A DNA stretch of 29,411 bases, taken from contig JAITTC010000267.1 of NCBI GenBank assembly GCA_031287285.1, positions 1 through 29,411 of the forward strand. The letters are read 5' to 3'. Below the pieces are notes generated by a model. It saw nothing but the letters and a program-made list of their open reading frames with translations. It had not been told where the DNA came from and searched no databases. The DNA is from Christensenellaceae bacterium. GTDB lineage: Bacteria > Bacillota > Clostridia > Christensenellales > UBA1750. Made by a program: the position numbers and the translations under genes. Below are positions 2,571 to 29,411 of this stretch, in pieces (the stretch's first letter is position 1; each line of letters begins with the position of its first letter).

Positions 2571-3848
2571 ATGACCGAAAACCCCGGCGCATTCTTGGGC
2601 GAAAACGACGTGAAGTTCATTCGCCTGGCCTTCTGCGATCTGTTCGGCAGGCTCAAAAACATCTCCATCATGGCGGATGAGTTCGAGAACGTGGCGGCCT
2701 TCGGCAAGAGCTTTGACGCCTCGGGCATTTTTGGCTTTGTCGATACCAAGGGCTCGGATCTTCTCCTCATGCCGGATCTGACGACCATGGCGCTGCTCCC
2801 TTGGCGGCCCCAGCAGGGCGGCAGGGTCGCCAGGGTATATTGCGACATCCTGTATTCAAGCGGCGAGCCCTTCGAGCTCGACGGCAGGCGCATCTTAAAG
2901 AACAGCGTAAGGCGCCTCCAGGCGCTGGGCTACACGGCCAAGATCGCGCTGGAGTGCGAGTTTTATCTCTTCAACCTGGGCGACCAGGGCCAGCCCATTC
3001 TGGCCCCGCACGACCAGGCAGGCTACCTCGACTTTGCCCCGCTCGATAAGGGCGAAAATGTGCGGCGCGAGATTTGCCTGAACCTCGAGCAGATGGGGAT
3101 CAGGCCCTCTTCCTCGCTGCACGAATCAGGCCCCGGGCAAAACGAGATCGACCTGCACCGCAGAAGCCCCATCAAGATGGCGGATGCCTACATCGCCTTC
3201 ACGAACGTGGCCAAAACCGTCGCCTCGAGCTTTGGGCTCTACGCCTCGCTCCTTCCAAAGCCGCTGAAAGATAAGAGCGGCAGCGGCCTGCACGTTTCCA
3301 TCGCCCTTGAAAAGGATGGCGAAAACGTCGTCAAGGGCGAAGGGGGCCTGACCCAGGCAGCCCAGGCCTTCATGCAGGGGATTCTTTCGCGCGTGGCCGA
3401 AATCAGCGCCTTTTTAAACCCCCTGCCGGGCTCGTACTCGCGCCTTGGGCGCTTTGACGCGCCCGGTGAAATCTCGTGGTCGAACCAGAACCTGGCGCAG
3501 CTCCTGCGCGTGGCGCAGTCGGGCGGCGACCGCGGCGCCCACATCGAGCTTCGCTCGCCAGACCCTGCCATGAACCCCTACATCGGCTTTGCCCTGCTGC
3601 TGGAAGCTGGCGCCGAGGGCATCGAAAGGCAGCTTACGCTCCTTCCGGAGGGGGAGGTGCTAGGGAGCCTGCCGGGCAGCCTTGAAAAGGCGGTGGCCCT
3701 GGCGCAGGGTTCCGATTTGGTGAAAAGGGCCCTGCCTTCGCGCTTTGCGGAGCCCTTCCTCTCGCACAAGCTCGGCGAATACGAGAGGATGTTCCGCTCC
3801 GGCGACGCCGAGAGCTTCGAGATCGAGAATGACTTCCCCGTGATCTAA
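2571..3848 (+). CDS. glnA: Glutamine synthetase type I-like protein with degenerate catalytic motifs
   Basis: VKFIRLAFCD, FDASG, ECEFYL, HESGPGQNEID, PKP...GSGLH, IELRSPDPAMNPY. Start placed at ATG 2571 after AAGGAGG rather than 2496. Confidence 0.85.
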   Translation: MTENPGAFLGENDVKFIRLAFCDLFGRLKNISIMADEFENVAAFGKSFDASGIFGFVDTKGSDLLLMPDLTTMALLPWRPQQGGRVARVYCDILYSSGEPFELDGRRILKNSVRRLQALGYTAKIALECEFYLFNLGDQGQPILAPHDQAGYLDFAPLDKGENVRREICLNLEQMGIRPSSSLHESGPGQNEIDLHRRSPIKMADAYIAFTNVAKTVASSFGLYASLLPKPLKDKSGSGLHVSIALEKDGENVVKGEGGLTQAAQAFMQGILSRVAEISAFLNPLPGSYSRLGRFDAPGEISWSNQNLAQLLRVAQSGGDRGAHIELRSPDPAMNPYIGFALLLEAGAEGIERQLTLLPEGEVLGSLPGSLEKAVALAQGSDLVKRALPSRFAEPFLSHKLGEYERMFRSGDAESFEIENDFPVI

Positions 3849-14696: not shown

Positions 14697-14709
14697 TAAC
14701 CTTCTGCAT

Positions 14710-14835
14710 GCCCGGCGCGGGCTTTGAATTCGCGGAAGGCATTCCGCAAGCGGAATGCCCTTGAATGAAGGCGCGAAAAGCTATTGCTTTTCGCGCAAAG
14801 GCGGGGGAGCAACTCCCCCTGCACCCCTTCCGGGG
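14710..14835 (-). other. Multi-hairpin structured element, copy 2 (homologous to 7451-7603 plus)
   Basis: Stems at 14803-14819 (7 bp), 14771-14796 (11 bp perfect), 14738-14759 (10 bp perfect) and 14710-14722 (5 bp). Minus-strand linkers TTCATTCAAGGG and TTCCGCGAATTCAAA. Confidence 0.7.
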
Positions 14836-14985
14836 CTGGCTGCGAGCAGCCATTGCTTTGCGAAACGCCCGAGGTTTGGCGTCGCTATGCAAAACGGCCA
14901 CGGCCGCCGCAAAAGGGGCAAGAGGCAATCAATTCAGCCGCTGCAAGCGACAAAAACCCGTAAGCGCCACCATCATGCCCTCGCC

Positions 14986-15110
14986 ATGTTTTTCTCGCCG
15001 CTTCGTGTTGGGATGGCTTACCAAACAGGCTGATTTTGGCGCTGGTCCTCGCCGTGAGCGCGGTGGTGATCCCGGGCGCCGTTTGGGCCATCGCTAGGGA
15101 CTTTCTTTAA
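14986..15110 (+). pseudogene. Possible frameshifted remnant of a small membrane-protein gene (C-terminal part)
   Basis: MFFSPLRVGMAYQTG (14986-15030) continues after a one-base shift as LILALVLAVSAVVIPGAVWAIARDFL-TAA (15030-15110). It is hydrophobic, uses host-like codons, and its stop abuts a terminator arm. Confidence 0.35.
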
Positions 15111-15126
15111 AAAAGGGCGGCGGGAA

Positions 15127-15685
15127 AGAGAGCATCGTCCCTACGAAAAGCGGAGCGATGCGGAAACCGCAATGACGGGCAAAAGACGAGGACATGGCTG
15201 CACTTCTTCATCATTGCGAGGAGCGTAAGCGGCGAAGCAATCCAACAAGTACGCGCAAAGCCTTCTTTAAAAAGGAAGACGCTGGATTGCTTCGTTGCCA
15301 CTCGCAATGACGAGGTAGAGGGAGGCGCTGGGTTGCTTCTTCGTCATTGCAAAGAGCCAGCGACGTGGCGGTTGTAAAGGGTACTCCGCGGCTTCGTCAT
15401 TGCGAGGAGCGTAAGCGACGAAGCAATCCAGCAAGCATGTGCAAAGGCTCCTTCAAAAAGGAAGACGCTGGATTGTTTCGTTGCCACTCGCAATGACGAG
15501 GTAGAGGGAGGCGCTGGGTTGCTTCTTCGTCATTGCAAAGAGCGCAGCGACGTGGCGGTCGTAAAGGGTACTCTGCGGCTTCGTCATTGCGAGGAGCGTA
15601 AGCGACGTGGCAATCCAGCAAGAACGCGCAAAGCCTCCTTCAAAAAGGAAGACGCTGGATTGCTTCGTTGCCACTCGCAATGACG
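15127..15685. repeat. Tandem array 1 of a 104-bp CGTC-tagged palindromic (REP-like) unit, 3 copies
   Basis: Units at 15209-15312, 15395-15498 and 15582-15685 (period 186/187 bp): CGTCATTGCGAG-GAGCGTAAGCGA-CGAAGCAATCCAGC-N34-GCTGGATTGCTTCG-TTGCCA-CTCGCAATGACG. Flanked by the direct repeat GGCGGCGGGAA at 15116-15126 and 15685-15695. Confidence 0.95.
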
Positions 15686-15721
15686 GCGGCGGGAAGGTGA
15701 ACCCCTTCCCGCCGCCCTTTT
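15685..15721. terminator. Terminator hairpin downstream of the M20 dipeptidase gene
   Basis: GGCGGCGGGAAGG-TGAACC-CCTTCCCGCCGCC, then CTTTT, 8 bp from the minus-strand stop codon. Confidence 0.7.
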
Positions 15722-15728
15722 CATGCGC

Positions 15729-17168
15729 CTATAGCTCGCCGGTCCATTCCGCCAGCGCCAGGATGTAGATCTCGATTCCCTTGAGCAGGTCATCCACATA
15801 AAGCGCCTCATCGGGCGCGTGGGCACCGCCGTGCCCGGGCGGGAAGAGCGCCGGATCCTGCGCATGCCCTAAGCCCTTTGGCAGGCCCATGCCAAAGACC
15901 AGCCCGTTTGGCAGCTTGCGCGCGTAGGTGCCGCCGCTCATCGCGTAGGGCTCTGCCTGCGCGCCCGCGACCTCGTTAAAGGCCTTCGTCAGCGCCTTCA
16001 CCACAGGGCTTTCCTTGGGGAAGTGATTTGGCTTGTTCGCCTGCACGAGCTGTGCCTTGTAAGCGCCCCGTTCACAGGCCTTGGCGATGCCCGCCAAGAG
16101 TTCCTCGAGCTTTGCCGTGACGGGGTAGCGAATGTTGAACTGCAAGACGGGCCGTCTTTGCTCGTCAAGGCTCAAAAGGCTGCCCACGGAGGTCAGCGCG
16201 CCGCTGATCTCGTCCTCGCAGGCGATGCCAAAGCCGAAGCCGTTCAAGCCGATGCCCGCTTTGAGCAAAAACGCCAGGGCATTTTCGTCCCCATCGCCCA
16301 AAATCCCGGCGAAGAACAGCCCGCGCAGCAGCTTTTGGATGGCGTTCACGCCACCCTCTGGCCTGGCCGAGTGGCTGGCCACGCCGTGCGCCCGGATTTT
16401 GACGCTTTTTTCGCCATGTTCCGCCTCAAGGCCATCGGGAAGGCCCTTTTGGAGCTTTTCTGTAAGCGCTTCGCCTGCCTTCAGCTCGATTTCGGCCAGA
16501 TCCGGCACGATGTTGCTGGCCTGTCCGCCCCTGAGCGCCAAAACGGCCTCGCTCAAGGGGGCGTCACCCAAGAGCTTGATCTCGATGATGCCCTTTTCGG
16601 CAAAGCCCACGGGGAAGGAGCCGTCCGCCACCAACGACAGCGCGGGCGCCTCGTAGTTTGCGACATAATGCGTCGCATCGTCCATGCCCGTTTCCTCGCT
16701 GCAGCCCAGGAAGATGCGCAGGGGCTTTGCTGGGCGCAGGCCCAGCTCCTTCATCGCAAGCGCCGCATAGAGCGCGCCGACCGCGGGGCCCTTATTGTCG
16801 GCAACGCCGCGGCCGATGAGGTAACCCTCCTTTTCGATGGGTGAAAAGGGCTGAGCGTGCAGCCAGCCTTCGCCCGGCGGAACCACGTCCAGATGCCCCC
16901 AGATGCCGATGCTGCCGGGGGCCGTTTCGCCTTCGCCAAGCCAAAGCGCGCCGACCTTATAGTCGTAATTTTGCGTAAAAAAGCCCAGTTCCGCGCCGAG
17001 TTTCAAGGCCTCGTCCAGCACGTCGCGGCAGGCCTTTCCGTAGGGGCCGGGCTGCGCGCCAGAGTCGCTGATGCTTGGAATGCGCGCCAGCCGGAGGATA
17101 TCCCTCACGATCTGCGGCCGTTTTTCCTCCAGCCAAGCCCGCACGCTTTTTCGCGTTTCGCTGCTCAT
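15729..17168 (-). CDS. M20 metallo-dipeptidase (PepV/Sapep-like)
   Basis: GHLDVVP, GRGVADNKGP, GCSEETGM, ADGSF, SGGTYAR, AHAPDE. Confidence 0.9.
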   Translation of the reverse strand: MSSETRKSVRAWLEEKRPQIVRDILRLARIPSISDSGAQPGPYGKACRDVLDEALKLGAELGFFTQNYDYKVGALWLGEGETAPGSIGIWGHLDVVPPGEGWLHAQPFSPIEKEGYLIGRGVADNKGPAVGALYAALAMKELGLRPAKPLRIFLGCSEETGMDDATHYVANYEAPALSLVADGSFPVGFAEKGIIEIKLLGDAPLSEAVLALRGGQASNIVPDLAEIELKAGEALTEKLQKGLPDGLEAEHGEKSVKIRAHGVASHSARPEGGVNAIQKLLRGLFFAGILGDGDENALAFLLKAGIGLNGFGFGIACEDEISGALTSVGSLLSLDEQRRPVLQFNIRYPVTAKLEELLAGIAKACERGAYKAQLVQANKPNHFPKESPVVKALTKAFNEVAGAQAEPYAMSGGTYARKLPNGLVFGMGLPKGLGHAQDPALFPPGHGGAHAPDEALYVDDLLKGIEIYILALAEWTGEL

Positions 17169-28544: not shown

Positions 28545-29411
28545 CGGATTTCCTTCGTGGGCGGCGCTGCCGCATGGCGCCCTTCGCCGCTATCGCATCG
28601 TGCCCCTTTCGTCATTGCGAGTGGTAACGAAGCAATCCAGCGTACTTCGTCGCTTACACGCCTCGCAATGACGGTGGATACGCCGCTCCTTCGTGGGTGA
28701 CGCTGTCGCATGGCGCCCTCGTCGTCATTGTGAGTGGCAACGAAGCAATCCAGCGCACTTCCACTTTGCAGCCCTTTGCACGTACTCGCTGGATTGCTTC
28801 GTCGCCTGCGCTCCTCGCAATGACGGTGGGTGCGCCGCTCCTTCGTAGGTGACGCTGTCGCATCGCGCCCTTTTCGTCATTGCGAGTGGCAACGAAGCAA
28901 TCCAGCGTACTTCCTCTTTGCATGCCCTTTGCACGTGCTCGCTGGATTGCTTCGTCGCTTGCGCTCCTCGCGATGATGGCGGCCCCATCAAGGCGATGGC
29001 CTCGTTGCGCCGCTCCTTCGTAGATGACGCTATCGCATCGTGCCCTCTTCGTCATTGCGAGTGGCAACGAAGCAATCCAGCGTGCTTCCTCTTCGCAGTA
29101 CCTTTGCACGTGCTCGCTGGATTGCTTCGTCGCCTGCGCTCCTCGCGATGACGGCGGCCCCATCAAGGCGATGGCCTCGCTACACCGTTTCTTCGTGGGT
29201 GGCGCTGCCGCATGGTGCCCTTCGCCGCTATCGCATCGTGCCCTTTTCGTCATTGCGAGTGGCAACGAAGCAATCCAGCGTATCTCCTCTTCGCAGTACC
29301 TTTGCACGTGCTCGCTGGATTGCTTCGTCGCCTGCGCTCCTCGCAATGACGGTGGGTGCGCCGCTCCTTCGTAGGTGACGCTGTCGCATCGTGCCCCTTT
29401 CGTCCTTGCGA
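28545..29411. repeat. Tandem array 2 of the same 104-bp palindromic unit in opposite orientation; runs off the window end
   Basis: Units at 28610-28673 (internally deleted), 28723-28825, 28875-28978, 29050-29153, 29248-29351, and a sixth starting at 29401. Each is CGTCATTGCGAG-TGGCAA-CGAAGCAATCCAGC...GCTGGATTGCTTCG-TCGCCTGCGCTC-CTCGCAATGACG. The left boundary is approximate. Confidence 0.95.

Follow-up and report, generated by a model that had tools for sequence, protein, structure and literature searches.

The sequence of the locus under investigation supports the view that a mosaic array of CGTC-REP sequences interrupts a formerly single, strong palindromic terminator, part of the left arm of which now stands there twice. 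Insertion with duplication of the target is the simplest reading that the sequence supports. As for how it might have come about, we favor, at roughly even chances, the insertion of REP sequences into the terminator with a target duplication of variable length, made by replication or repair and not by a fixed-stagger transposase.

The window (the whole stretch of DNA that was analyzed, 29,411 nucleotides) belongs to a short-read metagenome-assembled genome (MAG) of 270 contigs, 88% complete, with 1.68 Mb and 60% G+C, pieces of which occur in public termite-gut metagenome runs. The only other genome of the same genus (2.24 Mb, 97% complete) is referred to hereinafter as the sister.

Structure of the Locus

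The features of the locus, with positions counted along the window, are the following:

14705-14880, plus strand: structured multi-hairpin repeat of about 150 nt, of another family, upstream of the stranded arm
15036-15110, plus strand: the sole ORF ending at the TAA at 15108-15110 (24 codons, TTG start, hydrophobic), a doubtful gene
15105-15110: minus-strand T-run (TTTTTT read on the minus strand), now about 570 nt from the present hairpin
15111-15126, plus strand: stranded outer 16 nt, AAAAGGGCGGCGGGAA, of the putative former left arm of the terminator, recognized by complementarity to 15706-15721
15116-15126, plus strand: direct-repeat copy 1, GGCGGCGGGAA, inside the stranded left half-arm
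15127-15684, no strand assigned: mosaic CGTC-REP array of three tandem units of about 186 nt (558-559 nt in all), from the repeat and self-similarity analysis
15127-15207, 15314-15393 and 15500-15580: spacers of about 80 nt each, with a degenerate small REP hairpin
15208-15313, 15394-15499 and 15581-15685: inverted REP pairs (REPIN, about 105 nt)
15136-15139 and, on the minus strand, 15682-15685: outward-facing CGTC heads
15685-15695, plus strand: direct-repeat copy 2, GGCGGCGGGAA, the first 1-4 nt of which are attributable equally to the REP arm
15685-15716, no strand assigned: present terminator hairpin, 13-bp stem, loop TGAACC
15717-15722, plus strand: CTTTTC tract 3' of the present hairpin
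15729-17168, minus strand: Sapep/M20-family dipeptidase gene (Pfam Peptidase_M20, 5.5e-26)

The initial annotation had placed the same 11-mer at 15116-15126 and 15685-15695, and both its letters and its coordinates were confirmed. The 16-nt segment 15111-15126 is complementary to 15706-15721 at every position and forms with it the perfect inverted repeat that had been described around the block. When position 15126 is joined in silico to 15696, with 15127-15695 removed, the folding of the joined sequence agrees with the predicted perfect 18-bp stem with the loop TGAACC; in a context of 92 nt, the reconstructed terminator has a folding energy of -47.3 kcal/mol on the plus strand and -51.5 kcal/mol on the minus strand, and it has A/T runs on both sides (an A-run before the stem and a T-run after it). 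The hairpin present today, in which 15685-15697 pairs with 15704-15716 (repeat and terminator scan, the latter calling it on the plus strand), reaches -34.8 kcal/mol (z = -6.6), and none of 200 shuffled sequences folds as well; its stem has 13 bp, i.e., 5 bp fewer than the reconstructed one. The stranded segment 15111-15126 has no local hairpin (-11.8 kcal/mol, z = -0.45).

The proposal that the insertion had preserved a working hairpin is only partly sustained. Judging from the sequence, the plus strand still displays a 13-bp stem followed by CUUUUC, as in an intrinsic terminator, while on the minus strand, which is that of the peptidase gene, the shortened stem is followed by GUCAUUGCG and the U6 tract is gone, so that this strand would no longer display the feature. 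The reconstructed site would have had a stem and a U-tract on both strands, with U6 on the minus one.

The direct repeat is real, but the length of 11 bp originally assigned to the duplication represents its upper bound, the boundary with the REP arm being ambiguous. The repeat-family coverage falls sharply at 15685/15686 and at about 15133. Since it drops from 92 to 27 and then to 10 over 15685-15687, and since 38 of the 423 REP arms run on with GGCG after ...CGCAATGAC, the duplicated target can be set at 7-11 nt. The microhomology at the junctions is weak (4 nt, GGCG, at the right one and none demonstrable at the left one).

The stop codon of the dipeptidase gene is located 7 nt from the foot of the putative original stem and 43 nt from the array. 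The nearest homologue of the encoded protein, 85% identical, is named Sapep family dipeptidase and labelled Christensenellaceae; no peptidase more than 85% identical was found in a search of 5.8 billion proteins. On the opposite side, the TAA at 15108-15110 is present on the plus strand, as previously reported, but it closes just a 24-codon ORF with a TTG start and does not establish a convergent protein gene. The multi-hairpin repeat at 14705-14880 (-91.6 kcal/mol, z = -4.2) is unrelated to REP and is represented, whole or in fragments, at least eight times in this genome and at least eight times in the sister; a scan of the window, including this repeat, against Rfam gave no family over threshold. 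A small RNA and a second repeat family are both conceivable identities for this element, and the plus-strand terminator may have served it.

Organization and Family of the Array

The array is composed of 3.0 units of about 186 nt, a number that the short-read assembly may have altered, and not of the 2.6 units previously counted, the first spacer being merely more diverged. The units share 92.5-93.5% identity, and in each REPIN the two arms flank a loop of about 34 nt. One of the two consists of CGTCATTGCGAG, 12-13 nt, and then GAAGCAATCCAG; its partner has 7 nt in the middle. The signature of the family consists of a CGTC head, an ATTGC/GCAAT stem and a CCAG tail, and all of these can be recognized: CGTCATTGCGAG heads occur throughout, the strict two-part pattern has 165 matches genome-wide, and ATTGC...GCAAT is followed by CCAG, with a loop that exceeds the 4-5 nt typical of the family. 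The sequences are also numerous, clustered and located at the 3' ends of genes, with 92 blocks that total 38 kb of the 1.68 Mb.

The best copy elsewhere in the assembly shares 84% identity over about 165 nt beyond the REPIN; no donor exceeding 84% for this part of the unit was found in the assembly, from which donor arrays are perhaps missing. This points to local tandem duplication as the source of at least some of the array. A search with the left-junction sequence gave no informative match. The family has a second array in the window, at 28594-29365, which is inverted and shows periods of 152 and 175 nt; it ends about 45 nt from the end of the contig (29411) and was left out of the flank tests.

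Chance Controls and Comparison with the Other Arrays of the Genome

The arrays of the genome were delimited by self-BLAST coverage and the blocks with a REP core were kept, for a total of 92 blocks, 61 of which have both flanks assembled. As a null, the left and right flanks of different arrays were paired (flank swap). Exact boundary direct repeats of at least 11 nt were found in 0.08% of the mismatched flank pairs and inverted repeats of at least 12 nt in 0.02%; the 16-mer at 15111-15126 has no second occurrence in the 1.68-Mb genome. The rarity of such repeats among swapped flanks and the uniqueness of the 16-mer indicate that the left half-arm is truly related to the right-hand terminator. 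As for the 11-mer GGCGGCGGGAA, it is a low-complexity motif (GGC repeats), about five times commoner than the uniform expectation, and it occurs 13 times in the genome, both strands considered, with three of the 13 occurrences at this locus.

The same scar is not shared by the family. Boundary direct repeats of at least 9 nt were detected at three of the 61 arrays; two of them are internal array modules, and the only genuine one is that of this locus. Flanking inverted repeats of at least 10 nt, i.e., split palindromes, were found at one of 60 testable arrays, again this locus, and none of the remaining testable arrays splits a palindrome. The idea of an 11-bp flanking duplication as a family-wide scar is thus contradicted (one of 61 arrays), the other duplications measuring 93 and 115 nt.

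These longer duplications emerged from a local alignment of wider flanks, which revealed direct repeats scoring at least 30 at six of 50 arrays, versus 0.5% of the swapped-flank controls. On inspection, most of the repeats with this score could be assigned to CRISPR-like repeats, to degenerate REPs or to tandem units of larger size; some apparent flank repeats were discarded because they belonged to collagen-like Gly-X-Y coding sequence or to internal array modules. Clear target duplications are present at three of about 51 arrays, namely at this locus and on the contigs C185 and C196, where they are about ten times longer than the 11-nt case. At C185, a 93-nt duplication (95.7% identical), corresponding to the last codons and the stop of a YitT/DUF2179 gene, flanks an array of 340 nt. 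At C196, 115 nt from a beta-lactamase-fold gene (its 3' end) are found on either side of an array of 714 nt, the two copies being 93% identical; the left copy extends into a diverged piece of the end of a convergent GFO/IDH/MocA gene, and the terminator palindrome is missing from it. Both arrays lie between convergent genes, and both duplicated segments are single-copy in the sister, whose spacer at the C196 site measures about 45 nt and holds a terminator hairpin. In this genome, the flank-array-flank structures thus involve duplicated stretches of about 10, 93 and at least 115 nt. The three cases are grouped here with caution, as they may not share the same mechanism.

When the segments 1328-1480 and 2205-2420 of C196 are compared, the left copy is cleanly devoid of the terminator palindrome of about 65 nt, with the sequences on both sides kept; to judge from the alignment, the duplication seems to have been followed by deletion of the hairpin. 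Close to the C196 junction there is also a match of 10 nt (TTGCCGCGCC), which lies off the joint and, for this reason, was not counted as microhomology.

In some cases, CRISPR-like repeats are interleaved with REP arms or fused to them, as at C182 (1420-2036 and 15649-15731) and C187; further sites of this type are those of C265 (2298-2388), C75 (about 3090-3240) and C85 (2120-2600). Two types of repeat were observed, ATCACCCCCGCTCGCGCGGGGAAAGC, which resembles type I-E repeats, and ATTTCAATCCACGCG..., which resembles type I-C ones. At C75, three CRISPR-like repeats and two spacers of about 33 nt stand beside a REP array in the interval between two genes, which in the sister are only 46 nt apart. 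Cas1 genes are present in this MAG. REPs could be invading CRISPR arrays, or CRISPR units could be carried within mosaic arrays. A different kind of repetition is that of C120 (6100-7120), C156, C268 and C270, which contain long GGNCCNTGCGG-like runs with a period of 9 nt; these look like collagen-type Gly-X-Y coding repeats on the opposite strand, and they gave false flanking repeats in the first screen.

Distribution of the REPs and Search for an Empty Allele

Matches to the strict REP pattern number 165 in the 1.68 Mb of this genome versus 11 in the 2.24 Mb of the sister, and the pattern is present in just five of 151 genomes of the order. The array flanks were mapped to the whole sister genome, and both flanks are syntenic for 20 arrays; 14 of these 20 sites are REP-free in the sister, which indicates that arrays were gained in the lineage of this MAG, and the other six contain REP in both species. 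Where the synteny is clearest, hardly anything but a short spacer containing a terminator hairpin separates the flanking genes of the sister. Moreover, contig ends lie next to 31 of the 92 REP blocks, which makes the arrays a main cause of the fragmentation of the MAG.

At three loci of the sister (contigs C43, 22170-22532; C45, 68721-68977; and C26, 21603-21852), a single REP has been duplicated in tandem along with 50-106 nt of unique flank, with periods of about 154-257 nt. The strict pattern is also found in more than 120 species-representative contigs across phyla, mostly of Alphaproteobacteria (Bradyrhizobium and sphingomonads), with others from Gammaproteobacteria, Bacteroidales (including termite-gut 'Emb289' MAGs), Melainabacteria and a Bacillota MAG. 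Given an identical pattern in several phyla, one may ask whether it has spread horizontally within gut communities.

An empty allele carrying the reconstructed terminator, which had been envisaged in relatives or reads, was not found in 41 relatives, in the metagenome scans or in three public runs. Among the 41 relatives, only the genome of the same genus is syntenic at this locus; its spacer at this site is 350 nt long, cannot be aligned, and holds a REP arm in the same orientation, so the presence of REP here may predate the split of the two species or the duplication event. A JGI metagenome scan gave no match for the peptidase query and zero matches for the hairpin pattern, and in the three public termite-gut runs the contigs of this organism are only about 150-270 nt long, none of them bridging the junctions.

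Possible Origin of the Duplication

The history that we favor would start from a strong palindromic Rho-independent terminator, with 18 bp in its stem and located 7 nt past the stop codon of the dipeptidase gene. One or more mosaic CGTC-REP units would have entered the left arm of the stem between ...GGGAA and GG..., with 7-11 nt of the target beside the entry point ending up on both sides, and the insert would have been amplified in place, or would have arrived pre-amplified, as three tandem units of about 186 nt. The outcome would be the stranded half-arm of 16 nt on the left and the 13-bp hairpin on the right, with a U-tract for plus-strand transcripts only. The event would not be due to a fixed-stagger transposase and was probably coupled to replication or repair: a polymerase stalling in the hairpin might copy a REP array located elsewhere and resume at a variable distance behind its departure point or, in an equivalent version, widely staggered breaks might be filled in. 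The same kind of event might have duplicated from about 10 to more than 100 nt of target in this genome. We infer both the direction of the event (insertion versus another rearrangement) and the template-switch or repair mechanism.

Among the other explanations, the one that fares best, though we consider it unlikely, is that the array is a MITE-like non-autonomous element moved in trans by a transposase with a fixed stagger of about 9-11 bp, the direct repeat being a classic target-site duplication. The direct repeat does abut the repeat-family boundary directly, and the outward-facing CGTC heads that bound the block might represent degenerate terminal inverted repeats. Duplications of 9-11 bp fall within the range of IS4-type DDE enzymes, and a true duplication of 9 nt, which lies within the ambiguity of the boundary, would have the typical length for a DDE transposase. 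However, a direct repeat of this kind exists at just one of 61 arrays, and the 93- and 115-nt duplications found elsewhere argue against a fixed-stagger enzyme.

The search for a mobilizing enzyme points in the same direction, even if its absence is weak evidence in a fragmented MAG, in which insertion sequences often are not assembled. No Pfam match for Y1_Tnp, OrfB_IS605, rve, DDE_Tnp_1 or RVT_1 was found in this 88%-complete MAG, nor for Y1_Tnp, OrfB_IS605 or rve in the 97%-complete sister; the sister harbors one DDE_Tnp_1 gene, which might be counted in favor of a transposase, and two RVT_1 genes, and Y1_Tnp matches occur in other genera of the family. The ORFs bracketed by arrays encode, according to Pfam, a flavoprotein, a flavin reductase, PBP1, an MFS transporter, a homoserine dehydrogenase and a methyltransferase, plus two proteins without a confident family. 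The genes between arrays are housekeeping ones, with no HUH/Y1, TnpB, rve, DDE or RT among them, and the check proposed earlier for an enzyme (HUH/Y1, DDE or RT) flanked by the REP unit gave no candidate. This agrees with the work of Di Nocera et al. (PMC3733652), who, as the initial annotation stated, described the CGTC REPs as having no known transposase. In addition, the HUH/Y1 enzymes that are the usual partners of REPs do not duplicate their targets, the IS200/IS605-type enzymes related to RAYTs producing no sizeable target duplication (PMC2817692). The varied length of the duplications, the enzymes not found, and the lack of target duplication by REP-linked enzymes together favor replication or repair over a fixed-stagger transposase.

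A slightly less probable scenario dispenses with a duplication coupled to the insertion. The array would have arrived without any duplication, or would have stood there first, and the hairpin would have been rebuilt by intrastrand quasi-palindrome template switching off the right arm, with the direct repeat as a by-product. Indeed, the right arm that was retained is complementary to all of the duplicated 11 nt, and a direct copy is indistinguishable from a fold-back one; furthermore, the REP arm at the sister's site would fit an old array followed by a more recent hairpin event, and the precise loss of the terminator palindrome from one of the two C196 duplicates points to the instability of palindromes in this genome. 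Nevertheless, a plain insertion would leave only GG/CC (2 bp) to nucleate the fold-back, and the 93- and 115-nt non-palindromic duplications found at other arrays would be left unexplained.

It is very improbable that the whole arrangement is an artefact or a coincidence, that is, a contig mis-joined through repeats or a chance similarity of a half-arm in G+C-rich sequence. The assembly derives from short reads, the blocks located at contig ends (31 of 92) reveal that arrays trouble the assembler, the motif is a low-complexity one occurring about five times more often than expected under uniformity, and no independent read or contig bridges the junctions; yet a k-mer assembler is not misled by a repeat as short as 11 nt, the sequence of each junction is unique, and the 16-nt complementarity, its exact placement and the restored A/T runs go far beyond the controls. 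Finally, the Cas1 genes and CRISPR-like repeats of the genome prompted us to consider spacer-type integration by Cas1-Cas2, in which an insert of about 30-35 bp ends up between copies of an entire repeat (about 28-37 bp); this was rejected on the basis of sizes, the duplication here being 7-11 nt and the insert 558 nt.

Comparison with Known Repeat Systems

The CGTC-tagged REPs were defined in 2013 by Di Nocera, De Gregorio and Rocco (PMC3733652). The sequences analyzed here share with the CGTC-1-like REPs of that work the CGTC head, a stem that starts with AT (ATTGC...GCAAT) and a CCA-type tail, as well as the presence of hundreds of copies, the arrangement in dimers and clusters, the location at gene 3' ends and the absence of an associated RAYT. 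They differ in their long internal loop (7 or 12-13 nt), although loops of different length were noted in the Bradyrhizobium CGTC-1 (PMC3733652), in their mosaic arrays, and in their host, apparently a termite-gut Clostridia-like bacterium, the terms 'Firmicutes' and 'Clostridi' having zero occurrences in the text of that article. The flanking target duplication seen here is not described for CGTC REPs in it (PMC3733652).

REPs nested in palindromes have already been reported: in H. neapolitanus, CGTC-1 dimers lie in 41-bp palindromes, and in T. roseum, GTAG-23 lies in small ones (PMC3733652). The likeness consists of a REP unit within a pre-existing inverted repeat; in those species, however, the palindrome is itself a repeated target or partner, whereas here it is a unique terminator with a partly duplicated arm, and this is the sole split palindrome among about 60 arrays.

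Tandem REPIN clusters including the flank are also known, from P. fluorescens SBW25 (Bertels and Rainey 2011, PMC3116915). The REPIN/RAYT system shares with the present one the inverted REP pairs forming a hairpin of about 105 nt and, at the three sister loci mentioned above, the flank-including tandem clusters. The heads are CGTC here and not GTAG, and neither the MAG nor the sister has a Y1_Tnp (RAYT) match. Unlike the tandem flank plus REPIN of SBW25, this locus, C185 and C196 show a flank-array-flank structure without a second array.

MITEs of the Correia or ERIC type are short non-coding inserts with inverted ends and a flanking direct repeat, often near genes or terminators, and in such families most copies show the same duplication length and depend on a cognate transposase. 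The array resembles them in its build and placement. The length of the duplication is not constant, with a boundary repeat of at least 9 nt at just one of 61 arrays and with 93 and 115 nt for the two other duplications, and rve and DDE_Tnp_1 were not detected in the MAG, where insertion sequences often fail to assemble. REPs at the join points of tandem chromosomal duplications of Salmonella were reportedly observed in 1990 by Shyamala, Schneider and Ames; those duplications are said to arise by exchange between two REPs already flanking the segment. In common with them, REP material is found here at a novel joint between duplicated copies, but there is no REP on the outer sides. In the literature examined, we found neither a CGTC-REP array flanked by a duplicated unique target nor gene-end duplications bracketing arrays.

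How CGTC REPs multiply has been an open question since 2013, no enzyme being known, and a single locus gives no answer to it; taken alone, the locus is a curiosity. The pair of genomes, on the other hand, is a usable system for studying how these sequences move, as it displays a sharp expansion in one lineage, new arrays where the sister has only a terminator, and legible scars that differ greatly in length. These facts argue against a classical cut-and-paste enzyme, and strain-resolved or long-read data from the same termite-gut population would make the alternative of replication or repair testable. On the practical side, the arrays fragment the assembly, and the pseudo-duplicates of gene 3' ends may be miscalled by annotation pipelines.

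More tentatively, and with less confidence than for the locus itself, it is possible that CGTC-REP arrays in general spread without a dedicated transposase, by hairpin-initiated copying during replication or repair (at terminators and perhaps at CRISPR repeats), with duplications ranging from about 10 to more than 200 nt and with a recent burst in this lineage. If this were true, insertions into the 3' ends of genes would survive because the gene end is duplicated, and this MAG and its sister (165 versus 11 matches, with 14 of 20 sites empty in the latter) would have captured a recent burst of the family.
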